Source: Marsupella aquatica
Lineage: Eukaryota; Plantae; Marchantiophyta
DNA length: 64,000 bases
Assembly: GCA_973895155.1 (NCBI GenBank)
Contig: OZ316893.1
Location: forward strand, 3,640,490-3,704,489
Direction: 5' to 3'
A program made the position numbers and the translations under genes. Below, one piece after another: positions 5,013 through 63,095 of this stretch. The notes below the pieces were generated by a model, which saw only the letters and a program-made list of their open reading frames with translations, was not told where the DNA came from and did not search any database. How positions within the stretch are numbered: the first letter of the stretch is position 1; each line of letters begins with the position of its first letter.

Positions 5013-5859
5013 GTTCTAGAATTACAACGATCTCCCAAAGCTTACACCAAAAGCGTCTCTCTCCCTCCCACTATTTGCCTTCCCTTCCGGGAGAGGGACG
5101 TCTGGATCCGGCCTCTCCACTCAGCCCGCCCTGTTCTACAAGTCCTCTGCGGTGCCTATCTTTCCCCGCCCTGCTGCTGCCCCGTTTGCCGCTGCTGCTG
5201 CTCCTGTGCTACTCCTCTTGTCCCATCCATCTCGACGACGTGCCTGGACTTCATCGACCCAAATTCCTCAGTTTTGGGATCCCTCATAGCCAGGCAACTG
5301 AGAAGTCTTCTCGTGCTCGACCGTAATCAAATTCCTAGATCTTCTGTTTCCCCCAGAACCTCCCGCAACCACTGTGCTCTCTACTAATGCAATCCATGAC
5401 TGTGTCCCAGGAAGTAGTCACGCAGCCATTTGCTTTCATATCTGTCCGTTCTGTCCCTACCTATTTCACCTTCGACACCGGGCCTCGCTCGTCTTCACCT
5501 CTACTTTGCATTTCTGGTCAAGGAGACGGCCCACCGACTCCTTTCCCCTCTGCTGCAGCTTGCCCGACTCACCTCACTGCTCCGCTCTTCTGTTTGAAAA
5601 CCTCGAGTCTCAATCCTTTCTCCCTCCCCGGCCGACACGCTCCACCTCGATTACGGATGGACGTCAGAGCCTCCACATCCACCTCCACCTCTCCTTCTCC
5701 TCCGTTCGTCGTCCTCCTCCGATTAGTTTATCTCCGAATCAAATGCGCTCACGGATTGGTCCGTGATCCTATTCTTTTGACTCCTCGTACTTGCCTGTCT
5801 GCCAGTCTTCGACCTTGCTGGCCTTGCCGCGTTCCTTGTTCGTCCCGAGACCTTCTCCA

Positions 5860-14395: not shown

Positions 14396-14685
14396 CTCGT
14401 AGGTCTCACTATATGAAGGCCTCCCCATCACCTGTGACATTTTTAGGCCTTGGACTCCCTAAATGTAAGAAAGTTTTTACTTTTGAACCCGTATAAAGTT
14501 AGAATATTCCAACTTTTTGATTAAAAATACCTTAATATTCTTATAAGGCTCAAACTTGGATTATTTAAACGACCCTATTGTTCTTCTTAGAAAATTTTCA
14601 AGTCTTGACTTAGAACCAATAAAACAACCCTAGCTTAATTTTGTTGGACGTGATGTGTCATTTTTGAGAAAGTGAAACCCCCGAG
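14396..14685. mobile_element. MITE, copy 1 of the family also at 56542-56837
   Basis: Ends ctcgtaggtctcac and gtgaaacccccgag; 8-bp TSD actttgtg/accttgtg (1 mismatch). The body aligns with 56542-56837. Confidence 0.75.
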
Positions 14686-16207
14686 ACCTTGTGCCTCTTT
14701 CTTTTGCAAAGTTAATTTTCAATGAAAAAAATGAATAATAAATGAGCAGCAGCTGACAGTAAGGAGTTGCCTCTATAGGTGGTTTTACAAGATGGCCGGG
14801 GCACTTGTGAGATTTTCTCAACAAAGCAAATGTCAGGAGGGCTATTTGAGATATCAAAGATAATGTACGGGTGTAAAAGTGTTTTTGAAATCCTTTTATG
14901 ACCCCCAAGAATGTCTTGTAAGCTAACTAGAGCAAGTGGTACTGGAGTAATTTTCTGAGAGACAAATTGAGGACCAACTTCAAGTCAAAGTCACCTAGTG
15001 CTTTGGCTAGTCCTAATTCTAACAAGAGAAGATCTGATTAAGGACTTCTGGGTCTGGACCACTTCTAATGCAAATCACTCGGAATAGGAATGGACCAAGT
15101 GCCTGACCAAGTGGCCAGATGAAGAGACCTCCAACTGATGTGGGTTGATCTAAACATTGGGACAAAAATGTGCTCCACTTACATAAGGAGAATTTGAGGC
15201 CCACTTCCCTGACCACTTCTTTCCATGTGGGATTGGCAGCAGTATAGAAATCTGAAAGAAACTGCCCCCAACATTTTGTAAAGTGCATTTTGTAAACTGC
15301 CCCCAACATTTTGTAAAGTTCCAACAGGTGTCCCAAATGGATAGCCATGATCACATCTTGGAGACCATAAAAAGTTGGAACCCCTCTACACGTCTTGCAA
15401 AGCCACTCTAAGGTCCAAGCCCACTCAATGGCCAAAGAAATTTGGAGCAAATGATCTGAATCAACCTCCAGGAGCAATGGTCTACTAGTCTTCTACACAC
15501 CACATACCAATGAAGGAGCATCTCATTTGGGACACACAAGTTGAGAAGGATGGTAAAGCAGTAGACAGTCTTGTTTTTTGCTTTGGCTACTGCATAACTA
15601 CAGTAGTAGCTCTAAGCTATGATAGAATAGGGTCTCTCAAAGCTTCATCATGATGATGGCTTGGGGAAGTCTCATGTTTCTTTGCCATAAGAACATGGCC
15701 GCGATGTTTTTCTCAGGTTATGTAAAACTTTATTTTCTCGTCTTTACAATGACCCATTTCTGATTTGATTTTTTTAAACAGAGGGAAGCCATATCCAAAA
15801 CCTGTGTTTTCCCATTCGTGGATATGATCATTCTTACCCTAAAAAGTTATGGCCATCCATAACTTTTGTGTGTCAGTAAGGAGAACCAACTACAGCAGTT
15901 AAGGTACCTAAATTAATTTGTTCTCACCCCCTAACATTTTACTCGTGACTTTTGTGTGGAGGACGGGAGTGGGGCCCACTAAAAGCATGGCCAGGATGAG
16001 CAGCTTTTTTTTCTCATGGAAATCACAAAAGTATCGGAAAAGTGGTCAATAGCAGGATATAATTGTGAAAAATTAGAGTTCTAAATAGTTTTTGAAACCT
16101 GTAGGCCCGCCTGTAGGCTTGAGTAGAGTTAAGGCGTAGGATCCTACAGTAGATTAACCAAGATCAAAAGGGAGAGTTGGAAGATTGGACTGTCGTAACA
16201 AAGTCTT

Positions 16208-25900: not shown

Positions 25901-27640
25901 TCCTGGTGGCTTGCCGCCATTCTGACACCAAGTGAATCACAGTAGAGAAGAACTGAGTGAAACACAGGGGCCGAGTTGAAAACATAGATAAATATTAAAT
26001 TGGCTCAAATTTCTTTCTCATTCAGTACACCCTTCCTGCAGTTGTTATCAAAACTGTCTGAGAGGCAAGATTCCAAACCAAACCTTCAATCATTACCAAA
26101 ATTTAGGAATTTACAAATTCAGAGAATAACTCAAGTTTCTATATTTCAGAAGGTCAGGGAATCTTGGAGTCGGGATTTACCTCGGAAATTATTTTCTGAG
26201 GGTCAAATAGAGTGTGACTGACGGGCGAAAAAACTTCAACACCGTTCTTCTGGCTAACTTCCTGTAAACCAAATTCGCTGAGATAGAATGTCACCCTGAA
26301 AACCAGAAAATAATTCTCCATGCAAAAGGCGTACATGAGAATCTACGATGGAGGCAGACGAATGGACTTCACAGTCAACTGAAAACCCAAAACAGACAGA
26401 CTTTTTCATCTGAGGTCGTCGCACCTTAATTTTCGTGTCGCGCTGACGTGCATACGGTTCAGTGTCCTGCTCGAAACATAATCTGTCGATACTCCACTGA
26501 TAAAAACAGAAATGTTAGTCTGGAAATACTGTTATAGCCTTCCAAATATTGTTTTCTCACCATTCCAAAGATAAAGATAATGGGCTTTGAAAAAATGCGC
26601 GTTTGTAGCTAACTGATTGATTAGAAAGACTGCAGAATTGTTCACTTGAAGTGCCATTTTAGACAATCAGCGCTTTTTGATACCCGATACTCCACTAGTC
26701 GCATTACCTACTGAGAAACGAACGATATCTAGTGATAATTGTTCACCAATGCTCCAGGCCATGAAGACTTACTTGAAAAACTAATCAAAATAACAATTAG
26801 AAAGAACCAGGACCGAGACTCCATGAGTTGAACCGCTAATTTAAGACTCGGAGGTGAAAGTTAGGTGATTGTTAGCAGATCCATTTTACTGAAGTGCTAC
26901 TTCAAAAACTAAACATAATTAGCACTAAGGTTTTTTGCAACTCCGTTGCTTAGACTGCTGAGTGAAAACCTTAACATTGCAATTGGCGCAAACTTTTATA
27001 AGATAGTCGACACAGTGAGGACTGCCAGAGACAATTGATGCTTTTGGTATTGTTGACCTGAGGATTGACTGCTTCCTAGAAACCAGAGGGTGGCAATTCG
27101 CTCAATGAAGGCTTCACTTGCCAGGTAGCGCTAGTTGAAGGATGTCCGTGACAAATGGCTGCAGCAGAGGAAATTTCGTACCTTTTCAAGGAGCTCTGGA
27201 ATGACCACTAAGGGACTTCCATGAACCAAAAGCAAACGGGACCCGCGAGCCTGGAGGTTTTCGTCCAAATTGCTTAGACTCTCAAGGAGAAACTTGATTC
27301 TATTCACGCCCACCGTTGCCGAGCCAGGAGATGGAGCTGAGGGGTCCGGAGCGAGAAAGAAGGGGTCGAGCACAAACACAGGGAGCACAGCCGAAGCTCC
27401 CTCGCAAGCTCTGTGCAGGGCAGGATTGTCGTGCAATCTCAGCCCTTTCCTGAACCACATTAGTGACCGCACTCCCATCTCGCTTCTCCCACCACCTCCC
27501 TCTCCCTCTCCGCTTCCTCTGCTTCCTTTGTCACACCTAATCGTGCAGCTGAGCTGACTGACTCGCAGTTGGCGAAATCCTGAGCACAATGGTTGAGCTT
27601 TCGGCAGCGAATTCAATGTCTTCCAAGACGCTAGCAGCAT
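22987..27640 (-). CDS. UVR3: (6-4) DNA photolyase, 14 exons, 612 aa
   Basis: Motifs [49 protein letters not shown] and DWSINNGNW. Exons: 27640-27182, 26496-26425, 26261-26181, 25921-25748, 25528-25460, 25348-25262, 25142-25044, 24884-24801, 24699-24613, 24485-24414, 24113-24000, 23734-23647, 23541-23446, 23243-22987. All introns are GT-AG; 1839 nt, frame open throughout. Confidence 0.95.
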
Positions 27641-28686
27641 TGAAGCTCCCTCTCGTAAACTCTATCTAAGCCACTCCAAAGCTTTCCCTGTTCCCCACCT
27701 GCTCCCGCACTCCTCTCGCCACTTCAAGTCATGAATACAGGACTCAAGCCATCTCCCTCACCGAAATTCGAAGTTGGCCTCGCCATCCGAAGGTCTCCAC
27801 CCACCCCTGTTCATCAGGAAACGACCCAATCCCCAAACTCACATTCCCAATTTGTCAAGATCTCATTTTGGTCCCTGTTCAGAGTGTTCGTGTGGTGCAG
27901 TCACCCCCATTTCATCAATGGACCTCCATCTCTGTAGAAAATTTGGAGCTTGTCATCCTCTCTTCTCCTCTCGTCTCCTCGTAACGTGAATCCAATCCCA
28001 GAGGTCTGTTTGAATCTGAAGGATTCGAATTTGCAGCTCAACAGCAGAGCGGTAAAGTTCCTCGATGCTATACTGTTACAGAATTAGCGGAGTTTTTCAT
28101 GGGCCCTCCAGGAACAACATGGTCCCAGAGGGACCACGTCAAAGTCCCCTGTGGGCACTCGTGGACGGCCAAGGATTACAAGATTGTGACTTATTTTACT
28201 AGTTGATATTAAACCACACCTGCCCCTACAAAGTTATATAGTGCACATAAAAAGTGCACAAGTTCATGAATGGGCACAAAAGGTAAGGTGGTGAGTGCAA
28301 AACCTTTTATTAGCAAGCGCTCCATTTTTTATGGTGAGACACTATTCATCACAGTACAAGAACGAGGAGTGCGGGGAAGGGGGCTTTTATACTAGCACCA
28401 AAATGCTTCAGACCTTGACAATTGGGAATGTGGCATTTTGGATCCAGCATAATAAACCCCAAGAAAGCCAGGTGACAAAAGGGACACTCTTCTGTTGACT
28501 TTGATGTCTATGTTTGTCACATATGTAAATGACTGACTCTCACATCCAAAACGTTATGCCTTCTTGCACATGCTATGTAGTTGGACTTAACCTTAACCCT
28601 TTCAATTGTGAACCTCATATCCAAACGTTATGCCCCAATTATCCCTTATCACCGTGGCACTCTTGGTTCTGTGGGTCACCCAATAT

Positions 28687-37552: not shown

Positions 37553-39804
37553 TATTCAGGGAGACGAGTCCCTGTTTTGTCATTAAATGCATCTTGGTTT
37601 TCCCCCACACCTCACCGGAAAACTCTCCTCGTTTTTCTGTCCCACTTTTTTCAGGCCAGCCTTTTTGGGTCCCCTAGCTGCCCCTGCCCATCCCATGCTT
37701 GGGCAGCCCTTAAAACCTAGCCCTTTTTGGTAACCACTTTATTTCTATATTTTTATTTCTATACTTTTATTTTAAATAATGGGTTCTCTGGCCCGCTCTC
37801 TGGTCATTAGTCAGATTTTTCTAACTGTATTTTGAAAGTTTGAAACATGGAAATAAGACCAAAGAGCCAAATAAGGCTAGCGCAGTCACCAATTGCAAGA
37901 AGAACTAAACCCTCCCTACAAATATAATTTTTTTCAGACAGGAATTCCTCTCAGCATTGAGTGTGGTTGCATTGAGGTCTCTTTTGTAGGAACAAAATTA
38001 TCTCAGGTTCCAGAAAAGAACTATCTGGTTGAAGGAGAATGTATATGTGACATTTCCAAAGAACAAAAAATGTGAAACCAGGAAACAGGATACCAAAGGC
38101 AAGTGACTCAATAAAGGGGTGAAAACATTAGCCTAACCTCTGTAAGATTAAAGAGCCAAAATAAGCCTGAGTCCAAACAACTGCAAAAATGACTAAAATA
38201 ACTACAACCCTACAGACAAATTTTTTTGGCATGAATCAAAGGATGTCGGTTGAGAAATGGAGTTGAGAAAAGACAAAGAAAGGAATTTCAAGGCAGAAAC
38301 TAAACGATCACAAAAAGCGCCAGCAAAATACTTGGTGGGTCCCCTCTAGGTAAAGATATTCGTGACTCTCACTTTTCAAATATACTTAATGGGGCCCCTT
38401 GTCCCTGCAACCCTTTCTCATGACCTGTGTCAGTGATTCTTTTCTGCATTTTTTAATTGTAACATAATCCTACAATTATCTACATCAGTCCACCAAATGT
38501 ACTCTCTAGAAGCAATTTTAAGTGTACACTTGCTTAAAATAAATAGATAACATATGTACAAAGTATTTAGCCCTTGTCACTCCCATATTCATTTTTTTTC
38601 ATGTGTTGAAATACTTGTGCAAGGTAAGTACTACTTTAAGGTACCTAATATTTACTCTCTTTAGTTATTCCATCTCAAATTTTTTGGCAGTACTCACACC
38701 TGAAAGTATTTCTCCAAAGCATAGTCTTACCTGAACTTTAGTAAGGCGAGTCAATGGTTTTGGGTACTATTTTTTAAAATTTGTTTTCTGCAAATAAATC
38801 AAGTGTGATTTAAACAATTCTTTGATGCTATTTTGCCAAAAAAAGGAGTCCAACGTGAGTATTTCCTAAACACACCGAGTTCTTTTTGTGAAAGTTTCTT
38901 TTGTGTCACTTTGAGTAAACATAGAGATGTGAATTGTGATATGATTTTGATAGCTAATTTTGTGGTTGTTTCACCAACATTGAGCTCAAATTTTAAGGTC
39001 ATATAACTGCTTTTACATTTGTTACTATATGCATCCTAGTGCTCATTTTTATGAATCAATTGATGCCTTGTGAATTTAATTAGTGCATTGTGTACTAAGC
39101 TAAACAATAAAAATTACCATTTAAGTGACATAAATTGCCTGAAATGCTCTAGCTAGATGCTCACATCTGAAAAAAACTTTCACAAAAATAACACCAACGA
39201 AAAGCTCAAGTCTAACATGAATATTTCCACAAAGGTTTTTGGCAAAATAGCATCAAAGAATGGTTTAAGGGCCACTTGATTTAACTGCAAAAAACAAATT
39301 AAAAAAAATAGCACCCAAATAGCATCGGTGAGGCACCCGGATTTCACCCAAACCATTGGTTCACCTTACTAAAGTTCACGGAAGACTATTCTTTGGAGAA
39401 ATTGGGGAAAGACATAGAAAGGGGATAAGGGAAAGAGTAGATGCTTGTCGTAAACACTCCTTCATGTCATAGCAACTTTGTTCACCACCCCTACTCAACA
39501 AACAGTCAGCAGCTGGAAGGGTGGGGTTTTAGGGGCTGCCCAGGCATGGGATGGAACCCAAAAAGGTTGGCCTGAAACCAACTTGTGACACAAAAATGAG
39601 GAGAGTCTTCAGGTGGGGTGTTGGGAAAGAAGGGTGTGATTTTAAGGGCTGCCCAGGCATAGGATGGGCAGGGGCAACGAGGGAACCCAAAAAGGCTGGC
39701 CTGAAACTGAATTGTGACACAAAAATGAGGAGGGTCTTCCGGTGGGGTGCGGGGGAGAACCGAGGTGCATTTAATGACAAAACAGGGACTAGTCTCCATG
39801 AATG
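37553..39804. mobile_element. Non-autonomous TIR DNA transposon, 2252 bp, ~170-bp TIRs
   Basis: The left end tattcagggagacgagtccctgttttgtcattaaatgca... matches the reverse complement of the right end ...tgcatttaatgacaaaacagggactagtctccatgaatg. Flanking direct repeat caacgga (37546-37552 and 39805-39811). No transposase ORF. Confidence 0.8.
38708..39402. mobile_element. Nested fold-back/MITE-like element inside the TIR transposon
   Basis: 38708-38845 is an imperfect reverse complement of ~39235-39402. Confidence 0.55.
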
Positions 39805-49606: not shown

Positions 49607-49920
49607 CAACTGTATGCTCAAATTGTAGGCCTGAAATACCGTGAAATATTGGCCTGTGCTAAACAATTTAATTGGCACTTACAATTCAATTCCTACAATG
49701 ATGGAGCTTAAAAATGAAGTTCAAATTGCCAGCTGCAACCTAGCAGGGGTAAGTACTACTACAAAACTGTATGCTCAAATTGTAGGCCTGAAATATTGTC
49801 AAATATTGGCTGTGCTAAACAATTTAATTGGCACTTACAATTCAATTCCTACAATGATGGAGCTTAAAAATGAAGTTCAAATTGCCAGCTGCAACCTAGC
49901 AGGGGTAAGTACTACTACAA
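49607..49920. repeat. ~157-bp near-perfect tandem duplication
   Basis: aactgtatgctcaaattgtaggcctgaaata...ggggtaagtactactacaa occurs twice. Confidence 0.85.
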
Positions 49921-50553
49921 ATTGTGGACAGAGCTCAAACCCCTCCAATTTGAGCTCAGGCAGCTGCTTCTATGGTGGGCAGCTTGAATCCGGTGGATGG
50001 AACCCAAACAATCAGCCATGTGCCTATCAATGCAAAGGTCCGAGGTGAAGCAATCACCTGAGTTGAACCCTCTGTCAACATTTTCTTCAGAAGGTTGACA
50101 TATTTCTCAAAAGATAGTTGGGGCCTATGCTTTGTGCAGGTACTCTTCATTTTCTGGAAACATCAAGCCTGCTGGAGGGCAAGCTTCAATGTTTGGAGGG
50201 AGGTACCGCACCTGTAGTGTGCAATCACGGGCAGTACAAGGGCAGGCCAACTGTGGTGGGAGAAACCATGGGTTAGGCTAACCCACCTGGGTAGACTTTG
50301 CCAATCAGGTGCTTTCTGGGGTATAAATATGAGTTACAATGACCTGCTCCGGTTTGGAGGGCCGTATAATATATAATTAAATTAGTTTGAAGATTAACTT
50401 AGTAAAAAGTTGTGAGAAATATTCTTAGGCAGCGTCTTCATTTTTGCACAAGTTGACATTGGCAACTATTGGCAAAAAAAAGGCCTTAAAAATAAGTTGT
50501 TTTGACCTGGTGACCAACACCCATGCAACTGTGTTCGCTATGTTGGTGGCCAG

Positions 50554-51156
50554 TGTCGTGCGCATACATATCGCTACACAACATACATCGCTTGTCACAT
50601 ACATCCAGACATAGTCACACTCCACATCACAAACACAAGAGAATGGAATACAAGTGGAACTCATGTCCACACATGTCCAAAACCCACAATAATCTCCATA
50701 CAATCGGCACAACGATCCCGGTCAACAATACCCTATCGATCCCGCACCGATCCGATCACACACATATGTCAAGCCAACGCACCTTGCACTACTCAAGGAA
50801 TCCACGTTACACAAGCGGAGCTCACAGCCACCATAGCCACTCAAGCTCCTCTCTCTCCAAGGCTCAACATTGAAAGATGACCTTTCAATGCCTCACAAGT
50901 GAGAAGTGCCCTCTCACACAAACCTGACGGAACCTTATCGGCTCCAATAGCACTCATACCAAACGTACATACTCTAATAGCATGATATACTACTACACTA
51001 CTCAGAATGGTGTGACAGCTGTCGTGCGCATACATATCGCTACACAACATACATCGCTTGTCACATACATCCAGACATAGTCACACTCCACATCACAAAC
51101 ACAAGAGAATGGAATACAAGTGGAACTCATGTCCACACATGTCCAAAACCCACAAT
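50554..51156 (-). repeat. 3' terminal repeat block (A-gc-B-A in element orientation)
   Basis: The two 137-bp A copies look identical and flank one 328-bp B copy. The A/B junction reads CGACA-GC-TGTCA (plus 51013-51024). A PPT-like AGGGGGGCG lies just inside, at 51157-51165. Confidence 0.9.
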
Positions 51157-51329
51157 CGCCCCCCTAGCTGGGAGTAAGGTCCCCTAACTCTAGCTAGCCA
51201 TGAGTTCTACAAGGTTGATATACACCTTTTTAGGTGTGAAGATCAGGAGGCTGGGTGCAAGTGAGCCCCATCGATCACCTACCTGCAATCCATATCTGCC
51301 AAGAGAACACAAATGATAACTAGTCGGCT

Positions 51330-52745
51330 TCACCGACACTGAGGACACAACCATGATCCACTAGGAATCACCTGCAATGGTGGTGTCAAACATGACATGT
51401 GTCATCCTCTAGAACACTTATCACAAATCAACATAGTAGTTGCTCCCTAATCCACACAACATATATTTCAAGCCAGCACGAACATGTGCCAAGCTTGGAT
51501 CTACTGTACCATCAATGTTGGGAAGGTGACATGGTGCACAGTTGCGCACATGATCCTTCCAAACTATACAATCGCGTCCCTCCAACATCAGGACACCAGA
51601 AGGCAACACTTCACGCACACGTAAGATTGTCCGGCCTGCGGTCACATCAAGTATCGTGGGTGCTGTCTGCTGCAAATAAATATAATCACCAGGATGAAAT
51701 CGTCGAATGCTTGCACGGTAACCTCCTCCACGAATAGTGGCATACCTCAAAGTATCACAATGTTGGGCAATGGCAAGGTTATCGAAAGCCATGGGCATCA
51801 CTCGCTGAAATACCCGTGCTCTCTTTGAACACACCTTGACCCAAACATCAGGATCATCCAAGTTCACAACTGATGCAGCATCACGACGAATAGCTGCTGG
51901 AAAATCTGGCTCCTACCATAGAGCAAAAAGTAAGGTGAGAAGGATGCAAGTGATGCTTGCCGACTAAAACGGTAGCCCATAGCTAACCAAGGTAGCTGGA
52001 GATCCCAATCTCCCAGATGACCAACCTGCAAGCCATACTTACGCAATCCTCTCTTCACAATTTGCACAACTCTCTCAGCTAATCCATCTGCCTCAGGATG
52101 ATCACGAGAGGTAGTACGATGATCAATCAGAGCTTGTTCACACAAACTCTCAAACTTTCCACGGAACTCAGTTCCCTGATCAGTCAACACCTCAGCTGGT
52201 GCTCCAAAATGACTGAGTACACGATCCAAAAATGTAGCAGCAACTCCTCCACTGGCTTTATCTGGCAACGCCACTAGCTTAATCCACTTGGAGAAGTGCT
52301 CCACCATGACCAAAACATACCGATTATGACGTTGGGTAAGAGGTAATGGACTAGCAAAATCCAAACTCCAACGATATCCCAAACCCATGATTGGCAACGG
52401 GTGCAACTGGGGAGTGGGAGCATTAAATGATGCTCTCACTCTATCACATACCACACACTTAGCTATCAACTACTGGACATAAGTATGCATACCACGCCAC
52501 CAATATTGTGTCTGCAGCAAGCTGTAAGTGCGCTTTACACCAAAGTGACACAACTCCTCGTGCGCATGTCGCACCAAATGTACTCTCTGTGATGGTTTTG
52601 GGACCACCAACACTCTACCATCATGCAATACTCTCAAAAGATGGTTTCCCTCCCATCGAAACGTCTTGGCTCTCTGTAGAACCCTGTCACGTTCCTTGGC
52701 ATCAACACTGCCAACAATAGAACCACTGCGCAGATATTCCAACAC
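51330..52745 (-). pseudogene. Retrotransposon DDE integrase (HHCC zinc finger + rve core) with a C-terminal PHD finger; disrupted
   Basis: HEELCHFG...CVVCD; WSLDFA, VLTDQGTEF and EADGLAERVV. The tail reads MLCG...[31 protein letters not shown]. Internal stops and frameshifts are present. Confidence 0.88.
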
Positions 52746-52766
52746 TCTCGAATCATTGTGGATATC

Positions 52767-54436
52767 TTATTTTCCAGTAGTTACCTCACTAACATCCACA
52801 TCTGAAGACTCATCATCCACTCCATCCAATGAGGTAGAGTCCACAGATCCACTGTATGCTGGCACCCAACAAAGAAAGGCAGATGCATGCCATCCTGGCA
52901 CCATCTCCTTATCTGACTCATCATGCCATCTGGCTCCAGTCTCATCTTGCTGACTGGTACATGGATTGCGGCTTAATCCATCTGCATCCAAGTTCACTTT
53001 TCCAGGCCTATGCACCACTTGGAAATCATACTCCTGTAACAACAATGCCCATCATGCAAGCTTCCCTGTAAGCTTGTCAGACTCCATTAACCACTTAAGA
53101 GGCTGATGATCAGTGATCAAGGTGAAGGGGTTACCAAACAAGTAGCAACGAAAGTGTGCAACAGCCCACACTTTCCCTCATAAGAGCTATACTTAGCCTC
53201 TGCTGAATTGTTTGATCTACTGGCATAAGCCACAACAAACTCATTCCCCTCATCGTCCTTCTGAGTCGGCACTGCTCCAAGTCCTACTCCACTCCAATCA
53301 GTGTGTAGCTGAAATGGTCTGCCTGAAATGGGTCTTCTCAAAATAGGGGATGATGCCAACCTTTGCTTCAACTCCTGAAAGGCATGCTCCTGGTCATCAC
53401 CCCAAATCCATTCCTGATCCAACTTAGTGAGTATGGTCAAAGGGTTAGCAAGCTGGCTAAATCCTTTAACATACCTCCTGTAGTAGCTTGCCAATCCCAA
53501 GAATGCACGAACTCTACTCACATCAGTAGGATAAGGAATCTGTGTAATGGCCTCCACTTTAGTCTGCTGTACACCCAATCCCCCTGGGTATATAGTGTGG
53601 CCCAAATACTCAATCTGGTCTTGGAAGAACTTACACTTGCTAGGATGGAGCTTCAACCCATGTGCTCTCAATCTCTCCAACACAGTCTGCAAGTGCTACT
53701 GATGTTCTTCCACAGTAGAAGAATAAACCAAAATATCATCAATATAACATCTGACAAAATCCAAACCTGCAAGGATTCGATCCATGACTCTCTGGAACTC
53801 AGCTGGTGCATTCTTCAACCCAAATGGTAAGAATAACCACTGATACAAACGATCTTTGCCATAAGAATCAATCCCCCAGAATGCTGTCTTGGACCTGTCA
53901 GCATGCCTAATTGGAACCTGATGGTACCCTGCCCTCAGATCCAATGAACTGAAAACCTTTGCATGCCCCACAACATCAAAGATCTCTTCAGGTGTGGGCA
54001 TGGCATATCTATCAGATTTTGTTTGGCGATTAATGGGTCTGTAATCACCACACATGCGCCTATCTGTGTAATTGCCATGCACATCCTTCTTGGCTGGCAT
54101 CACTATGGCAGATGCATACTCCCCATATGAAATCTCCACCAATCCAACCTCCAACAAATCTTGAGTTCTGCTTTGAATCAGAGCTCTCTCCATGTCACTG
54201 TAACGGTATGGCCTACGAAAGATTGGCGCATCACTAGCCAATTCAATCTGAATACCAGGACCCTTTAATGTCCCCAAATCTTTCATGCTAAATGCTAAAC
54301 AATTCTAGTAACTCTTCAGGAATTGATGCATGCGACGTCTCTCCTCCCCTGTCAACTTAGGGCCAAGCTGTGGTTCCCAACTCTCCACCAAATCCCTAAT
54401 ATCTCTTTGTAGGGTAGAAGAGATAGCCGATGATTG
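52767..54436 (-). pseudogene. Retrotransposon reverse transcriptase and RNase H; disrupted
   Basis: RMCGDYRPIN, LDLRAGYHQV, LPFGLKNAPAEFQR and YIDD; RNase H motifs LHTDWS, VAYASR, YSSYE and ADGLSR. In-frame stop at 53696-53698. Confidence 0.92.
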
Positions 54437-54639
54437 CTATTTAGCAGTAGATTGAGTAGTCCCTTCCTGCTCAACAATCTGTCTAGTCTTGGCCAATCCT
54501 GCCATAGGTCCATGGACTGTCTGCTCGCCCCCAGCTGTGGTCAATACTGTCTCAGTGGACCGCAAGCTCACCAAGGGACAATTAGTAATTCCAGCAGAGC
54601 GCATCCGCAACTGTTCAGCTACTCCCAAGCTGATAATCC

Positions 54640-55600
54640 AAGTCAAACAATTCAGGTCCATTGCTTGACCAAGGACCTGGCGCCGCAAACCCTCTGACAC
54701 AGAGGCAACTGCAGTGGTGCCAGTCAAAATCCCATAGCACGCTCTCTCTCATCAGCAGAAGGCTCCACTAACTGCTGGAGAGCTGTATCCCACACAAGTC
54801 CAGGGCCACCTGCTCTGAATGCATATGAAGTAGAGTGGCTTACAAGAGTGGGTAATGCACAACGTGGGCGCCCAACTGCATTGACCATTGCCAATGGAGG
54901 TCTATTAGGTTGGGTCACACCCTGTGCCCGACGCCCTGGATCCAAAATATCATCCACCACTAAGGCTGGTGAGCGTGGAATGCTGTCAAATGCGCGCTTC
55001 AGCACCTCACATGGGATCAAATTAGATCAAATTAGTCCACCACAAGCGTGGACGATGTGCACGAGAACCCACATGTGCAGCATCCAATAACACAGCAGGT
55101 CCAATCCAAGACCTCACCTGGTGAACATTGGCAACAATCCGACTACGATCATCACCTAACAATGGCACATTCTCCAAAATGTATGTTGGAGACTGTGTTT
55201 GATGTAGCTGGAGATGACGCAGCACCCGTAACATCTCCCAAAACAATGCAGAGCGTGGATCATGAAGTCCATGCCCAATGCCAGCTCTAGATTGGCCCTG
55301 ACATGGCCAACCAGCAATCACCAAATCAATGGGGCCAACACGATGTAGATGATCCGCCCCCAACAAGGAAATATCAGCAGGTAGTGCATGTTGATAACCA
55401 CGAACAGCATCCACTGGCAGCAACTGTGGATATCTATCCACCAACATAGCCACATGTCGCAATGAGACTCTCCGTGCTGTCTCATCTGTCTCCACATACA
55501 AATAACAACGCACAGGAATTCCTGCCTGAAGAACAACAGCCAATCCAGTGCTAATCCCACCAAAAAGATCCAACAAACAAATACCCTCCGGTGGATATTG
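54640..55600 (-). pseudogene. C5 cytosine DNA methyltransferase domain within pol; two frameshifts
   Basis: Motif I LDLFGGIS, II YVETD, III ADI, IV IAGWPCQG, VI ILENV, VIII HRPRLWW, TRD PTL, IX SADERERAMGF, X RQVLGQAM. Confidence 0.88.
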
Positions 55601-55783
55601 CCAAGCAATAGGAGTGGTATCCAACGGTGAAAGAGTCACAGGTCCATCTGCAAGAGACTGCTCTGCTCCTGACTGTGGTGTAAAAGCATGACGCCATGCA
55701 TCATGTACCAATCGTGCTACTGCTTGTGGCAAGGTCTATGTAGTGCCCCACACTGGTGGCACAACACTGCCAACAGGTAATCC

Positions 55784-56488
55784 TCACATGATGTGCTCCT
55801 CATGAGATTCCTCCAATGGTGGAACATCGGCTGCATGCGCATTACCCTCAATCAAATCATCAGGTCCAGCAATTACACCACTAAATGCTGCCAAAGACAA
55901 TGGTGTGGATTTAGGGCCTCCCACAGGTCCACTAAATCTCACTAGCAATTTGCTCAATCGAGCATCTCCTGACTGCCAATCAGGTCCATATGACACTGAT
56001 TCCTCCCAAAAATCAAGAATAAATCCCATCCATGGGTAGAGCACTGTACATCCCACCAACACATCATATGACTTTGCCTTAGTCAGAATAGCTCGCGCTT
56101 GTATCTGTGAGCTATCTGTGGTATGACCTTCCTGAATCCTCAAATCAAGTGGTCTCCTGGTGATATGCTGTGTAGGTGTAGGTCCCCCCAATGAAGTCTG
56201 AATGGGAAAGGGACAATCCTCCAAATCCTCTAGATGCAATCCCAATCCACGTATGGCAGACTTCCCCAACATCAAGGGCTGAGCACTAGTATCAAGTAAC
56301 ACTCTCTCTGGCTGGTATACTACTCCAGAAGGCCCAACTAATCGGAAGATACCACTTCGATTATCCAATGACACAACACTAGGTTTAAACCTAGTCCTCT
56401 CAAATGCAGGGCGTGCTGGTAAATCCACCAACCTCGCTGCTGCTGCATGCCATGTCTCACTAGTAGCAGTACGTGCTATGGTCTTCAC
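55784..56488 (-). pseudogene. Retrotransposon aspartic protease region
   Basis: VLLDTSA (D-T-G-like active-site motif) and a downstream DVLVG motif; located between gag and the MTase. Confidence 0.7.
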
Positions 56489-56541
56489 TGCTTCAACACT
56501 GCAAGCTACTTCTGCATGGGAAGCAACAACTGGAGTGTCCT

Positions 56542-56837
56542 CTCGGGGGTCTCACTATATGGGGACCTCCCCATCGCCTGTGACGTTTTTAGGCCTCGGA
56601 CCCCCTAAAATGTAAGAATTTTTTTTATTTTTTAACCCTTATAAAGTTGGAATATTCTTGGAATATTCCAAAAATTGGATTAAAAAGACCCTAATGTTCT
56701 TATAAGTCTCAAAATTGAATTTAAAAGACCATATTGTTCTTCTACAAAAATTCTTAAGTCTTCCCTTAGAACCAATAAAATGACCCTATCCTTCGTCGCA
56801 CGTGATATGCCACTTTTGTGGAAGTGAAACCCCCGAG
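56542..56837. mobile_element. 296-bp MITE inserted in the retrotransposon gag-pol
   Basis: TIR ctcgggggtctcac/gtgaaacccccgag; perfect 8-bp TSD agtgtcct (56534-56541, 56838-56845). Same family as 14396-14685. Confidence 0.88.
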
Positions 56838-56873
56838 AGTGTCCTCACAGAGTGTAGCTACCAATCTGAACAC

Positions 56874-58624
56874 TTATGCAGGACCAACTCCCAAGTTCAG
56901 CATGTCTGTCGCTGAAAATAATGGGGTGCATACTATGGCAGTAGCCACCCCCAGTAGGGTACCTGTCATCCCTACTGTATCACTACCGGATTCTGCCAAC
57001 TTACCCACGCCAGGGTTTATCCGAACCGGGTTCATAGAGGCAGTCTGAACTGTCTTTGACAATGTAAAAAACTGAGGAAGCTTTGTCTGCCGATGTGCAT
57101 CCCCCCTCTGTGGATCTACCTCCACTACTGATCCTCGGGGCTCAAGAGCTTTGGCTGCCCCACGTGTCAAAGCTACTGATGCATCAATATGTGCAGTGCC
57201 ACACATGAATCCCATGGTGGCAAGATCTCCATCAGCTCCATAAGATGTGGAAGGACCATGGGATGTGGAAGGTCCATAGGATGTAGATGCCCCATCACCC
57301 GAAGTAGGTCTCACTTGGGAACTAGCCATGGCAGCTAGTTGTTGCTCCAATTGAGCAATTTTAGCATCCTTTGGATCTATGGTTACAGCAGGGGCAGCGT
57401 CACCTCCCTGTCTCCCTGCATGTGGCATGCCACGACCACGTCCACCACCTCTACCTCCTCCTCCTCTTCCCTGATCATGTGTACGGGATCCTCCCCTCCG
57501 TAACTCAGGGTGGAGTGAGAAACACCTATCCTTGGTGTGTCCAGGAGCTCCACAATGATCACACTATCGCTGATCAGGTGCTGATGCTCCCCCTGATCCT
57601 CTATGATCTGGGAAATATCTCTGTGCATGATCCCCATCACAGGTCCAACATCCTGACTGCTGTCTAGCATAAGAGGGCACAGGTCTCTGGCTGGTAGACT
57701 CTCGTGCAATAGGCTTCTTCCTCTGGCTCTTCTGTGCAGTAGGTTGTGGTGTAGATGTAGATGCAGCCTTTGGTGCTTCCTTGGCAAATCCGGAAGTCAT
57801 CACCTTCTCATTCACCATATTGAGCTCAAATTCTCTGTCCAGAATTGCATACCGAAACTGGACTGCTTGAGCCTCTGTCACTCCCTTGGTGACAGTGATC
57901 AATCTGCGCATACGAGTGTATGCCTCACGTAGACTCTCTCCAATCTTGCGCTGGAACTCCTGGAGACCCTTCAACTTATCAGTTCTCACACCCTGATAGT
58001 TCTGCTTCAGTACCTCAAAGAATTCCACCACAGGATTAAATGTTGGCGCAACTCCAGTTCCTGTCACAATCACACCGGCAGGAGTAGCGGTGGATGCTGC
58101 TGGAGTGCTGCTGGTGGATGGTGTGCCACTCTGGCTAGTGTTGCTAGAAGAGGCAGCAGCTGTGGCAATGGGTTGGGCAACTGCACTAGTGCCATAGGTG
58201 ATGGACACGTAATTAGGTGACCAATGCTGCCTCCATGCCTCAATCTCAACCAAATGAGCCTTCCGAAACTCATGGTAGTCATCCATGGGTGGCCCCTCCA
58301 ATTGCTGAAATAATCCCTTCCATGCCATGAAAGGGGTAAACAACGTGGCGTTACGCAATGTCTGCATATCGCACCACGTATCAAACTCCTGGATGAAGTC
58401 ATCCAGATCAATTGTGCCAACTGCACCAAAGTATCATCATGGGCCCTTTGTAGCCCCGTACATCTCGTCCATATCCCACAACAAAGGTGCAACCACCTGA
58501 TGACGAGGAGAACTGGTCACTGAGTCCTCGTCGGAATCACTGTCAAAAGCTGCACTGCTGACTGCTACCAATACCGCTGGCCGAAACTACGCCCCACTCT
58601 GAGTGAAACCGGTCTGTCGTCCAT
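56874..58624 (-). pseudogene. Retrotransposon gag with CCHC zinc knuckle(s); disrupted
   Basis: DLDDFIQEFDTWC and QRKIGESLREAYTR (capsid-like). A degenerate knuckle CWTCDGDH and an intact CDHCGAPGHTKDRC are followed by an RGG-rich tract. The start position is approximate. Confidence 0.75.
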
Positions 58625-60155
58625 CGGGTAACCCAGCAGCACCAGAAGAATCCGTGGTGACCAACCTAACCTAATCTATATGTTAACCCTAAGGGCAACC
58701 TGTCCCTGTCAGCAACACAAGCACTCACCATGGTGTGTTGGGCATCACTCCAACATCACCAGGAGAGAAATACGTAGCACAACTAGAATATCCGGTCGCA
58801 AACCCGGATCACTCCTATAGAATCAAGTGCCCACGCCAAACCAACATGGCGCATAAACAGGAAGCATGTGTGGAGAGGATCCAACAACAAGAAGAGGATT
58901 TACCACAACTCTCCACACCAATCAATCAAAAATACATGAAAATAATGTGCATATAGTTCAATGTAGGGCCTTCATAATAGGCCTCAAGAATCCCGCGTCA
59001 AATGTTCAAGAATCCATCGCAAACTAGCTAAAACAGAGTATCTAGATGAATTCAAAAGTGCATAAAACCCCTAGGGCCTCATTTCTTGGACACCAAGTGT
59101 GGAAGGAAGCATGTACAATGCACCACATAGGAACTTGCTAGTTAAGCGCATGAGGGGAGGATTAGCTTTGGGATGGGTGACCTCTCACTTGTCATTATGC
59201 ACCAAATCTGCCACTCCAAAATGGCAGCACTTGCAATTCTCCTCACGTACTGGCTTGCTGGCCCGCCCGCTCTTGCTCCGCCCTCACGCCCCTCATCCCG
59301 AGTAACCATGAGTTGTCTCGAAGCCTTGAAACGCCGAGATGAGCCAAAGAGTGAGCCCTTCACGCCCACTACGCCGGAACCAAGTCCAGATTTCGCACCA
59401 TTCGGACTTCTGGCCCCTGTTTCCCTTCGCAGAACTGCACGGTAGCGGCGTACACTCCGTCGCAACAGCAATCCGCGGATGCTGCCACCGCATTGACGTA
59501 CTGTCTCACAAAAATGCAGATCGTCGGTTGAAATCTCACAACATTTGGGTCTCAATCCCTCAGTTTCCTTCAAAGAAACACGTTGCAAAATGCAGCTCGA
59601 CTTCGCGTCAACCAACACTTAACCGAGCGCAAAATCAGCAACATATGCAGCTGCCGGCAGTCGCTTTCTTCACACCAAACTTGGTCCGCACAGATCAGCA
59701 TACGGAAGAACTAGACAACAATACGGCCGCGCCTCGCAGATTTGCATACGGACAAACTAGATAGCAATATGGCCGCGCACTTCGCAAATCTGCAACCGAT
59801 GACACCATCAGAATGTTGTTTCCTTCACAAAAACAGCCACCGCTTCACAGGATAGAACACTGCCGCACCCGATCTGCTTGTAGCCAACCGATACAACTCA
59901 AACAATTCGATCTGCAACCAAGATCTGCACACTGTCGACAGATTTGTGCATACAGGCTACAGATCTGCCAAACCTCCAACTCCAGATCCGCTCAAGAATC
60001 AAACTCACAGGATCTCAACTTGGATCCACATGCCGGCGATCCAATCAAACGATACGCTGCACGATCCGAGATACCACGAACCGTCGCCGAACACAATCAA
60101 ACTGAAAATCGAAGCTCTGTCCAACAACAGCAGAGTCCGATGCCTGATCTTTCAA

Positions 60156-60485
60156 TGTAATCTCCATACAATCGGCACAACGATCCCGGTCAACAATACC
60201 CCATCGATCCCGCACCGATCCGATCACACACGTATGTCAACCCAATGCACCTTGCACTACTCAAAGAATCCACGTTACACAAGCGGAGCTCACAGCCACC
60301 ATAGCCACTCAAGCTCCTCTCTCTCCAAGGCTCAACATTGAAAGATGACCTTTCAATGCCTCACAAGTGAGAAGTACCCTCTCACACAAACCTGACGGAA
60401 CCTTATTGACTCCAATAGCACTCATACCAAACGTACATACTCTAATAGCACGATATACTACTACACTACTCAGAATGGTGTGACA
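60156..60485 (-). repeat. 5' terminal repeat (B) of the retrotransposon
   Basis: Matches 50690-51017 with about 9 substitutions in 328 bp (counted by eye). Reads TGTCA...TTACA on the minus strand. Confidence 0.9.
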
Positions 60486-63095
60486 CCAGCAAGACCATTC
60501 TCTTCCATTAATAATGGATTTTCAGAGGCTTTCAAGATGGTCGGGGGGGGGGGGGGTTATTTCTTAGTTTGCCTCTTAGTGGAGTTTTTGTTGTTGTGAG
60601 GCACTCACTGGTTTGTTGGGCCTTGAGTTGGGCCTTTGTGGTCTCCTCGGGGTCTTTCCTTCCCCCCCTCCCTTTATTGGGTCTTTTAATTTTGCCTTTG
60701 GGACCATGTCTCCCCATTTGGCTTTCCTGTCTTCTTGGCAGTGTTATATATAGGCTAACTGCCTGTCCCATATATCAAAATCTGCTTGGATAGCACTTTT
60801 TCCAATTTTGACTCATATGTGACCTATAAACAAGCTCCTGACCGTTTGCAGCTGGTATTCCACTAATATACAAGGTGGTAAGTCGCAGCTCAAGCAAGCT
60901 ACTCAGAGTGTCCTTCCCAAAAGTGAAGCGCCCTTTCCCCAAGGTGGTAAGTTGGTGCTCTTGCCTAAGTACTGAGGGCGTTCTTCACAAATGTGAAGCG
61001 TCCATTGGCCATTACTTTATAATGTTCGACCATCTTTGCACTCATTGGCAATGGATCAAATGGTTTCAGAAAAAAATTAACTTTGTCAGACAATAGATTG
61101 GACATCAGAGAACATGTTGCAAACGTTTGAGCTGAAACAGAGATCAATAAATTGTCCAAATATATACACAAGTTTGCTGAAATCTAACATTTTACACTTG
61201 CAAAATCTACTGAGGGAGTCTTTCTCAAAAGTGAAGAGTCCTTTTACATATAGCCCGGCGGTGTGAATTGTGGGTATAAAGTGAAGCAGTGTGTGTCACA
61301 GGCTATGCTGGTGGGCAAAACACACCCCTCGTCCATCCAGGCTAAACTTTCCAAGAGAAGGTCTCACCTTTTGACCCCCCGAAAATGTATACATCTGCAA
61401 AAAAGGGGACCCACTCACAGATGGTTGGGTAATTGTTTTGACTAACCCCATGACCCGTTCCTTGAACATAAATAGATATATGAAAAAAATCTTGCAACAA
61501 TAAGTTTTTTATGCTATTATTTTTGGTTAGTCTTTGCCCCATCCTTGCTTTTTGTCCATACTCATTTCAGTTTTGTCCCTTTTAGAGTTAATGTCACTTT
61601 TGTATATACTCATTTAAAAATTTCACCTTATTGAACCCTCACTATCAGTATTGTCTTTATTTGGAGTTATGGTCTATAGGCTTTACTATAGATCTAGGCC
61701 CTTAAGAGTAGGCTTCAGTTGACGCTTTTATTGTAAGATTGAATTGATTGTGTCCCCAAAATCGTGTAAAGTGAAGTCTGACGGCCAAGACTACATCTCA
61801 CATGGAAACCCACATTTGACTGGCTAGGATTACATCTCAGTCATAGAAAAACAGGGAATTGCTACCGGGTGTAAAGCCACCCGTATCCCATGGACCGCGA
61901 ATTCAGACGCTACTGCACTTTTTTACTCGGCACGACACCGCGTTGTGTACTCCTCCCGTCTCCGCCATTCCATTGGGCCAGTCGGCTCAGACTGGCTCCG
62001 CCATTGACCTGGTTGGGAGAAGCTTTTCAAGCTCCAAGCAGTTGCGACCTTCCTCAGCTCCGCTGTCTCTGGGTCTCTCCTCTGCAGCCCACATGTCTTG
62101 ATAGTTGATACCCTACCAGGCTTTCACTCAATCACCCTGCCTCCCTGTTTCTTGTGGTTTGACTTCCAGTGTTCCATCAATCGGACTGTAAAATTGTCAG
62201 CTCAATTGTCTTTTGTGTTGGGTGCAGATTGAGTCATTGAGGATTTGAGCCTTTCGTGGGGTGCAGAGATTCTCATGCACCGACCCAAATGGGCCAAGGC
62301 AACAAGGAACCTGCTGCAGAAGTGAAGTGTAGCAAAGAAAGTAAACTACGTAGTATATTCTGGGAGGATATGATCATGCACAAAAATAGGAATCGGACTT
62401 CATTCGTGTCCAGCGGCCTTGGAAGAAGCGGATGGAGCCAGGTCAAAGGATAGGTTGCTCTGCAGGACTTCAATGGTGGCGGTGGGGAAAGGAAGCGCGT
62501 TATCCGCTGCTTCACCTGAAATCAGTGCAAGGTAAGTTAGTGCAAGTTGCCAATGCCGAAGTCAAGAACGGAGGAGCGCGAAAGGATTGCGACGAGCTGG
62601 TAATCCCTTGCGGCCGACCTTGTTGTGCGGCCGATTCTCCTTGAGTTGCGGAGATCGGCGAGAGAGTGCTCTCTGTCTGTCTCCCAGTTGCACTGTCACG
62701 GCAATAAAACTACTGTGCAGATTTCATTCGAGAACGAAGGGCCACAAAGGATTCGATTGATGGGAACAGTTCTGGTGGGAACTGGGAAGTGAGTGCGGAA
62801 CAACGGTGTGACAGGTAACAATTTCGAGGAGAACAGAGAGCGGCCGACCGACTCTTGATGAGATTGTTGAAAGTAGAGTGGATATTTCGGAGCTGGACTG
62901 GACTCGTACAGTATTGGAGGAGTAGCAGATTTTTGAAGGAGGAGACGGAGGTGGGAGCTCAAAGGCAACGAGGAGTTGGACACGGGAGGTAGCATCTGCG
63001 GTGATTTTTTAGGGAGACGCTGTGGGGTTTCTGTATAAAACGAGAAGGGTTGGTTTTAGCGAGTTTGTTGTCAATACAGTACTTGGAAGGACATC

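Follow-up and report, generated by a model that had tools for sequence, protein, structure and literature searches.

The Gypsy element described here, a decayed copy on the minus strand (60485 to 50554) of the window, carries its repeats in the order B-internal-A-GC-B-A within a 4-bp target duplication, and this arrangement is genuine and shared across the clade rather than peculiar to a single copy. The window is the whole 64,000-nt stretch of Marsupella aquatica contig OZ316893.1 that was analysed (3,640,490-3,704,489, forward strand). With moderate confidence the layout is attributed to joined cDNA ends (a likely 2-LTR circle) that the integrase would open at the upstream palindrome, reverse transcription being likely self-primed; both the circularisation and the palindrome cutting are inferred from the insertion products. 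The coordinates of the repeats and flanks (Table 1) bear out the arrangement and the CCAG duplication proposed in an earlier note on this DNA, and the fused joint which it placed near 50690 is present. Repeat A, given there as 137 bp, measures 136 bp, the larger figure holding when the base common to the polypurine tract is included. A1 and A2 are identical and B1 and B2 show 9 differences over 328 bp; the contrast drawn in the note between identical A and ~3% divergent B copies is not significant (Fisher p = 0.064), and a meaningful age difference between A and B was rejected. No further copies of A or B were found within the 64-kb window. The promoter, R and U5 are placed within B1 by a predicted U3/R/U5 division, and B2 would supply the 3' R region. 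The TG...CA termini and the 4-5 bp target duplication of Ty3/Gypsy elements are present, as are the A1-B1-A2-B2 split direct repeats of PAT/Ngaro/DIRS elements; two whole LTRs bounding the internal region are absent, so that Gypsy proteins occur without the canonical LTR layout.

Table 1. Features of the window element, in element orientation (positions in the window)
Feature	Position	Strand	Remarks
Target-site duplication CCAG, upstream copy	60486..60489	.	
Repeat B1, 328 bp	60158..60485	-	left integration end, TGTCA start
Predicted self-primer, transcript 5' end	60336..60346	-	complementary to primer-binding site; second copy 50868-50878
Predicted primer-binding site	60147..60157	-	first bases not TGG
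gag-like region	56840..58610	-	two degenerate zinc-knuckle-like motifs; in-frame stops; from translation and tblastn of relatives
296-bp MITE	56542..56837	.	terminal inverted repeats, 8-bp duplication; sits in gag-pol frame
Aspartic-protease-like region	55976..56541	-	matches PF13650-bearing region of relative P0037
Dnmt3-like C5 cytosine methyltransferase domain	54600..55612	-	PF00145, E 6e-12; frameshifts
Reverse transcriptase core	53591..54067	-	PF00078, E 7e-34; one in-frame stop
RNase H	53028..53404	-	PF17919 and PF17917; frameshifted
Integrase	51451..52595	-	PF17921, PF00665; HHCC finger, DDE core, C-terminal part; frameshifted
PHD finger at integrase C terminus	51336..51461	-	PF00628, E 1.5e-7; one stop
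Polypurine tract	51156..51165	-	
Repeat A1, 136 bp	51020..51155	-	CACGACA end
GC spacer	51018-51019		within palindromic junction
Intact palindromic attachment junction GACAGCTGTC, CA-GC-TG	51014..51023	.	perfect 10-bp palindrome
Repeat B2, 328 bp	50690..51017	-	
B/A joint (predicted U5 end fused to U3 start)	50685..50694	-	fusion point 50689/50690
Repeat A2, 136 bp	50554..50689	-	right integration end, CACGACA end
Target-site duplication CCAG, downstream copy	50550..50553	.	

The coding region comprises gag, a protease-like region, a Dnmt3-like methyltransferase, reverse transcriptase (RT), RNase H, a DDE integrase and a PHD finger. The Pol order protease, RT, RNase H, integrase and the DDE integrase with an HHCC finger agree with Ty3/Gypsy elements, the protease being assigned through relatives only; the Pfam search of the window gave no match in the protease-like or gag-like regions. 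The C5 DNA methyltransferase domain, the PHD finger and the MITE are absent from the earlier note, and contigs jumping 304 bp at the MITE site occur in three of four runs. For the methyltransferase of relative P0002, DNMT3A is nearest among solved structures (E 6e-12). The DDE core of the window integrase shows D-34-E spacing; the nearest solved integrase is that of Ty3, with a one-residue gap relative to the window between the second D and E, and the spacing of the window recurs in 65 of 67 relatives. The DDE triad is intact at 50 of 82 loci. After the integrase Pfam detects no chromodomain, the element having the PHD finger instead, and no match to PF00589 or related tyrosine recombinase models was obtained in six frames of the window at E 0.05. 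One locus from viral contigs, L123, encodes RT and integrase but has no methyltransferase match and no palindrome; L127-L132, of which one is a short piece of RT and five match prokaryotic integrases weakly, were not used.

Among related loci, host DNA is directly followed by TGTCA at all 12 distinct 5' ends, and intact 3' ends terminate at CA(C/T)(G/A)ACA; these ends are the two halves of one palindrome with core GACAGCTGTC. Conventional LTR ends were not found: none of 81 A starts and none of 41 B ends adjoins host DNA. A G-run precedes 58 of the 81 A starts. Copies with two conventional LTRs, the arrangement that the earlier note had held against its own proposal, are likewise missing among the related loci. 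Target duplications are 4 bp long at all seven complete insertions (five exact, two with three of four bases matching), and 3- and 5-bp registers fit exactly at none of them. The layout is common to independent insertions with distinct 4-bp duplications, a comparison which the note had called for; the full window layout with different duplications is present at L014, L025 and L074. Thirteen distinct 3' ends belong to the long form, B-internal-A-GC-B-A, and 24 to a short form that terminates at the first A, both sets continuing into unlike sequence. The 24 take in L056, which passes into part of B in inverted orientation, and L057, which is ambiguous in that its next four bases are those of the junction. 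In the window's own family, 43, 40 and 9 contigs exit the repeat exactly at the A end, beyond which agreement with the consensus is only 0.36-0.46; at the B start no host flanks were seen among the matches listed (24 of ~3400 and 18 of ~230 loose ends), and this end is defined by the related loci and one flank contig. The contigs of all five runs are short, and a small number of short-read metagenome assemblies, possibly with reads in common, supply most of the related loci. The end tallies leave out 17 of 80 loci that neither the A nor the B probe matched, L035-L038 (with an interrupted A), L047/L048 (deletion spanning the junction; the 5' end of L048 is still counted), L055 and L076 (contig end within A) and L045/L046 (B without its start); L016, L017 and L065, with no A or B probe match, were used for the palindrome only.

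The palindrome core was found at eight of eight compared junctions, six of which are perfect over 10-16 bp, in families with integrase cores that are 42-79% identical between families. The core is kept although the B repeats cannot be aligned across four families. In the window's own family the B/A joint is present in contigs of all four runs, with a depth of 7297 versus 51 for the flank contig of the locus in run X1, and 1720 versus 33 in run X3. The joint falls exactly between the predicted self-priming site and the polypurine tract, which is the position expected of joined cDNA ends. It begins exactly at the primer site in seven of eight distinct insertions of one family; in a second family all four joints differ from each other, as expected if each joint forms anew, with the limits that this family offers only one 5' B copy and that some "deletions" may be subfamily differences. 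Rare letters common to A1 and A2 of one locus amount to 1.43 per pair, versus 0.67 between loci, and in a second comparison to 4.0 versus 0.75; gene conversion could also cause such common letters.

Because the first bases of the primer-binding site are not TGG, the site is not of the whole-tRNA type, and tRNA priming was rejected. Self-priming is predicted at the sequence level from 12 nt in the window that are complementary to the 5' repeat, 10 nt or more being the criterion of PMC6317226. An 11-mer match to the primer site arose in 17 of 20000 shuffles, and the pair of primer site and self-primer covaries across five families (12, 17, 15, 13-16 and 14 nt). Of 13 copies, six have a match shorter than 10 nt, and the stability of the folded leader is not greater than that of shuffles (z -1.46). 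The boundaries of the tract and the primer site rule out TGTGG...TTACA, the cDNA ends predicted in the earlier note: A begins TTGTGG after the tract GGGGGGCGA, and the CA after GGAGATTA is part of the predicted self-primer site, whose complement lies in the middle of B. There is thus no TG...CA signal at the predicted cDNA ends, nor at those of the relatives.

According to the favoured reading, the transcript would start in the middle of B1 and end in B2, which would give an RNA with one intact junction, and its first 11-12 bases would anneal to the primer-binding site in the manner of Tf1. Standard reverse transcription would yield a linear cDNA of A-GC-B, internal region and A-GC-B, with ends lacking TG...CA. 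Joining of these ends would create the B/A sequence, and at the upstream palindrome the integrase would nick each strand 3' of CA; the resulting 5' overhangs of two bases would resemble normally processed ends. In the observed insertion product the GC spacer is lost, 4 bp are duplicated and B-internal-A-GC-B-A remains. Only in the long form would a junction and a 3' R both be available again for a further cycle; copies of the short form, B-internal-A, would derive from 1-LTR circles or double palindrome cutting and could not go through another cycle. Integration at the internal CA-GC-TG, as the earlier note had it, is strongly supported by the insertion ends. Against the simple version of the circle route, a 2-LTR circle has two equal palindromes, and the downstream-opening product is seen at 0 of 12 5' ends (p ~0.005-0.008 if it were as common as the long form), so that a bias toward the upstream palindrome must be added. 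As pure speculation, the Dnmt3 or PHD domain of the element may choose which palindrome is cut; the A half has a CpG. Also against the favoured reading, short-form 3' ends exceed long-form ones (24 versus 13); the further suggestion that a second junction is kept for the next cycle holds for the long form, and 24 of the 37 3' ends are without it.

The joint could also be made by a jump of RT from the right to the left cDNA end, or through two cDNAs linked head to tail, with the integrase pairing half-sites of different palindromes and internal cutting unchanged. Such a jump would be consistent with two families in which the joint shows an overlap of one base (A), and with a third in which six bases of the primer site match the start of A. 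At L020 and L022 an inverted B half-site at the end is reached through a fold-back at the primer site, which suggests that the plus strand is able to continue beyond U5 and that a newly made junction is able to act as a right end, although the left end of L020 lies outside the locus. The short form would simply reflect cutting of both palindromes of a linear cDNA, and a one-sided jump could account for the absent mirror-image product; cDNA dimers, however, would produce that form as well. In addition, RT jumping to the left end of the same molecule yields a nicked circle anyway, and deleted joints with short overlaps fit host end-joining equally well, and the jump is considered unlikely. Templating as in PAT/Ngaro elements, where the transcript spans the split repeats, B/A is inherited and fixed and resembles joined cDNA ends for historical reasons only, appears quite improbable. 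The repeat order is indeed the A1-B1-A2-B2 described for PAT elements in the accessible text of PMC4157794, and in two families the joint varies very little, but a tyrosine recombinase is absent, 4-bp duplications are present, the joint follows the primer site and the tract while both vary among families, it differs in four of four cases in one family, and A2 resembles A1 of the same locus.

There is hardly any probability left that the locus is an ordinary LTR element that was rearranged once or wrongly assembled. The run contigs compared with this locus are short and its A copies are identical, as this would have it, but the layout recurs with other duplications at L014, L025 and L074, the 3' structure is repeated at 13 distinct flanks, the joint occurs at high depth in four runs and related loci show no conventional end; as an account of the family, a one-off rearrangement is refuted by recurrence in independent insertions. 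It is possible, if rather doubtful, that the short form is not an integration product and stems from later A1/A2 recombination or assembly collapse. The A1-A2 distance is only ~465 bp, the duplication would survive recombination and the assemblies are short-read, yet both forms occur within the same assemblies and loci recovered from two or more assemblies are of the same form in each. An older age of short-form copies was rejected, the mean divergence being 0.089 for short and 0.085 for junction-bearing copies (p = 0.63, 16 versus 9 loci).

PAT, Ngaro and DIRS elements are not known to make target duplications, in contrast to the window element. The latter resembles PAT/TOC1/Ngaro elements, as far as their accessible descriptions go, in its split direct repeats and in an internal junction equal to the joined termini, but differs in its DDE integrase and lack of a tyrosine recombinase, its 4-bp duplication, the 2-bp spacer lost at insertion and the presence of a primer site and polypurine tract. 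IS3/IS911 are DNA transposons in which the DDE enzyme itself makes an abutted-end junction with a short spacer and inserts the circle via this junction, without reverse transcription; the proposed route would be analogous in that a DDE enzyme opens a circle at a spacer junction. In the consulted parts of Delelis et al. (2005, PMC1180852), foamy virus integrase in vitro cuts the LTR-LTR palindrome after CA on both strands. The palindromic CA-2 nt-TG junction is alike, cleavage being seen there and only insertion products here. Unlike in foamy virus, where the palindrome arises when the cDNA ends are joined and both LTRs of the provirus are whole, the palindrome of the window element lies inside the repeat, the cDNA ends are predicted to be signal-less and the inserted copy is permuted. 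The chromoviruses Tf1/Sushi and Tcn1 self-prime with a primer site complementary to a stretch within the 5' repeat (PMC4600332, PMC6317226) and share the predicted self-priming site and the lack of a tRNA-type site, but the window element differs in its PHD finger, undetected chromodomain, split repeats and methyltransferase.

The closest description is that of KnitGypsy-Dnmt3 from Klebsormidium nitens (de Mendoza et al. 2018, PMC5890265), which combines Gypsy domains with a Dnmt3-type methyltransferase in Pol, as does the window element. Its repeats are termed DIRS-structured (Fig. 4c legend), a structure given as A-coding-B-A-B (Fig. 1e legend), and the two elements probably belong to the same clade. 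Layout and methyltransferase were thus already in print in 2018; in the accessible parts of that paper no mechanism, palindrome, duplication, self-priming, PHD finger, short form or bryophyte members were found. Sequence searches returned relatives from Coleochaete and Closterium and no Klebsormidium-named proteins. Protein scans found no relatives in viral contigs, and 42 viral-contig matches to a 15-base junction motif, none encoding a relative, were taken as chance. No description of the mechanism was found in the open-licence papers searched, a scope that excludes Repbase reports and subscription papers.

In the textbook view, what LTR elements and retroviruses insert is linear cDNA, via its ends, and circles are by-products, although integrase is able to cut circle junctions in vitro. 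The proposed joining-and-palindrome-cutting route is not accepted as normal for either; for retroviruses the circle-precursor model was given up in favour of linear DNA, as stated in the accessible text of PMC11054761. On balance, and only slightly so, the evidence favours a green-lineage Gypsy clade in which the attachment sites have shifted from the cDNA ends to a palindrome within U3, and in which end-joining into a circle and internal opening are obligatory for a copy that is to transpose again. In such a clade the Panganiban-Temin circle model would have a natural standing case, and split repeats like those of PAT elements would have arisen convergently, here with a DDE enzyme. The reading offers an explanation for the layout noted in 2018, for which none was found in the accessible parts of PMC5890265, and the named relatives in Marchantia, Calypogeia and Sphagnum extend methyltransferase-carrying Gypsy elements to land plants. 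LTR-finding programs need two whole repeats and are therefore predicted to miss or mis-date this high-copy family. If the reading is true, junction-cleavage integration becomes the normal life cycle of a lineage, which would provide a natural substrate and enzyme for the study of junction cleavage.

The element in the window is a Gypsy copy whose repeats are split into two parts, A and B, with a GC spacer. In its own orientation it comprises B1, an internal region, a polypurine tract, A1, GC, B2 and A2 (the long form, B-internal-A-GC-B-A), and no further A or B copies are present in the window. Pfam matches are, in order, C5 DNA methyltransferase, reverse transcriptase, RNase H, integrase HHCC and core domains and a PHD finger; the remaining four frames of the coding region give none, and neither a tyrosine recombinase nor a chromodomain is matched in any of its six frames. 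The copy is dead, with several stops and frameshifts and a MITE in the gag-pol frame. B1 and B2 differ at nine sites and A1 and A2 at none; this contrast, noted earlier as a caveat (A identical, B about 3% different), is not significant (Fisher p = 0.064). The CpG observed/expected ratio over the element is 0.48. Changes among copies are dominated by C>T and G>A, as in methylated repeats, and the A half-site contains a CpG.

Features of the window and of related loci (window positions unless a locus is named)
Feature	Position	Strand	Description
Gypsy element	60485 to 50554	minus	between two CCAG copies
B1			328 bp; starts TGTCA
A1			136 bp; ends CACGACA
Integrase	52095-52376 (region of the D-to-E spacing)
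MITE	56542-56837		296 bp; terminal inverted repeats; 8-bp duplication; probably hAT-like; high depth in the runs searched
Second MITE copy	14396-14686		78% identity
Tandem duplication	49608-49921		~157 bp unit; 97% identity; 630 bp from the element
Repeat cluster	37554-39803		inverted and direct; another small transposon possible
Host exons	27131-27661 and 4371-5015 (- strand)		presumably photolyase-like and cyclin-like
Long insertions, both ends seen	window, L014, L025, L074
Short insertions, both ends seen	L003, L011, L023		B-internal-A
Aberrant loci	L020:3699-3878, L022:1750-1929		A-GC-B, then through the primer site into the inverted 5' half of B; terminus is the attachment half-site of inverted B
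Aberrant locus	L056:1805-1929		A end fused directly to the inverted inner part of B
Deleted loci	L033:1541-1817, L043:3321-3602		PHD region to mid-B deleted; half B, joint and A remain
Distant relative	L126:122-12890		single 3265-codon open frame and additional 713-codon frame; 14-bp palindrome ~250 bp after a G-tract

Repeat ends were tallied in the window and 83 related loci (the best 80 of 530 metagenome loci in an integrase-alignment scan and three usable genome-bin loci). Of the 81 A starts, 58 follow a G-tract, 21 a B end and 2 a truncated B; the 41 B ends run into A (21) or into the primer site predicted after B1 (20). The two conventional LTRs that the earlier note had proposed to look for in other copies were not encountered: host DNA touches 0 of these 81 A starts and 0 of the 41 B ends. 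With copies of identical flank merged, all 12 distinct 5' ends consist of host DNA followed by TGTCA, while distinct 3' ends running into unlike sequence number 13 at the second A and 24 at the first. Both ends are seen in seven insertions, four long and three short, all with a 4-bp duplication (exact in five, three of four bases in two); the four long ones show that independent insertions share the B...A-gc-B-A layout, the check that the note had proposed. The B/A joint, the predicted fusion of cDNA ends, occurs in contigs of 4/4 short-read runs searched for the window family, with summed depths of 7297 and 1720 (runs X1 and X3) versus 51 and 33 for the contig holding the flank of the window locus; joint depth does not equal copy number, and the runs may include the source sample. 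In three runs, 43, 40 and 9 contigs continue past the A end with a consensus agreement of 0.36–0.46, i.e., many different flanks at a single base. At the A start, 34 and 18 loose-end contigs open on the initial bases of the B end, which is what joints to diverged copies of B would look like; host flanks may be among them. The layout is real, clade-wide and mechanistically unusual.

The palindrome core GACAGCTGTC lies at the A/B boundary in all eight junctions compared, L126 included; six palindromes are perfect over 10–16 bp and two have one spacer base changed. The core is found in every junction compared and the B repeats of four families show no mutual alignment at E 1e-3 (of the A repeats only two align), so the palindrome persists as the remainder of the repeat changes. 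Both integrated ends equal the palindrome halves minus the 2-base spacer, and a kept palindrome with ends at its halves is, judging from the sequences, the pattern of an integrase attachment site. From the second D to the E the integrase has 34 residues in the window and in 65 of 67 relatives (including protein P0047), one fewer than in Ty3 integrase, a spacing that might be related to junction cleavage.

B1 is followed by a sequence that is complementary to mid-B and has no TGG at its start. The complementarity spans 12 nt in the window (an 11-mer is matched in 17 of 20000 shuffles), 10–17 nt in 5 of the 11 copies from a second family, and 15, 13–16 and 14 nt in a third, fourth and fifth, each family with its own sequence; it is below 10 nt in 6 of 13 copies examined. 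Both stretches are paired in the minimum-energy and centroid structures of the predicted leader fold, the stability of which is not unusual relative to shuffles (z -1.46). At the sequence level this agrees with the self-priming criterion in the consulted part of Neumann et al. (PMC6317226), and the predicted arrangement is like that described for Tf1/Tj1 in excerpts of PMC4600332. At the joint, the last base before the primer site adjoins the one that follows the tract. The fit is exact in the window and in 7 of the second family's 8 distinct insertions, the eighth having an extra base, while all four joints of the third family differ. Thus TGTGG and TTACA, previously suggested as cDNA ends, are not the predicted ends, and relatives lack TG...CA there. 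Shared non-majority letters per pair are 10/7 for A1/A2 of the same locus versus 56/84 for different loci, and 16/4 versus 18/24 in a second comparison, L007 and L029 being one locus counted apart; such an excess is as expected if A2 had been copied with A1.

Named relatives of the methyltransferase region occur in Marchantia, Calypogeia (best matches 71–77%) and Sphagnum, those of Closterium, Coleochaete and Hariotina being more distant; this range makes a bryophyte the probable host. L126 carries its methyltransferase between RNase H and integrase, and its integrase core is 42–48% identical to the others. L124, L125 and L126 are in records titled cyanobacterial genome bins, likely as plant or algal contamination. 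A viral-collection contig, L123, has reverse transcriptase then integrase and 99-bp terminal repeats, with neither a methyltransferase match nor the palindrome. Among known systems, the IS3 family uses a DDE enzyme to insert a circle through an abutted-end junction with a short spacer. The repeat order is, as had been recognised, that of PAT/Ngaro elements, whose enzyme and duplication are unlike those of the element (PMC4157794, in the part available). De Mendoza et al. 2018 (PMC5890265, likewise in part) describe an element, KnitGypsy-Dnmt3, that combines Gypsy domains with a Dnmt3 in Pol and has DIRS-like repeats; it probably belongs to the same clade and is a precedent for layout and methyltransferase; a 2025 paper (PMC12344493) merely cites that description in the section consulted. 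The open-licence literature searched yielded no description of either palindrome or mechanism; within it, an attachment site at an internal palindrome, the predicted self-priming, the existence of two product classes and the occurrence in land plants seem not to have been reported.

With the inferred transcript ends, standard reverse transcription from the two predicted priming sites would produce a cDNA of the form A-GC-B, internal, A-GC-B. If its ends were joined into a putative circle and the upstream palindrome were opened, exactly the long form would result, and with both strands nicked 3' of CA the ends would be of the ordinary processed kind; foamy virus integrase makes such nicks in its LTR-LTR palindrome in vitro (PMC1180852, in excerpt). 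The history of the circle model, rejected for retroviruses, is covered in the consulted text of PMC11054761. The absence of the mirror product (B/A-GC-B-internal-A), seen at 0 of 12 distinct 5' ends (p 0.005–0.008 at 35% share), counts against simple circle opening. The aberrant loci bear on this absence: L020 and L022 are apparent plus-strand fold-backs, and L056 resembles autointegration or insertion into another copy. The short form may derive from an opened 1-LTR circle or from cutting of both palindromes; short-form copies show no greater divergence than junction-bearing ones (p = 0.63), which mildly favours its direct formation. The 3' R would be retained in the long form only, which would explain why the odd joining and opening step persists.
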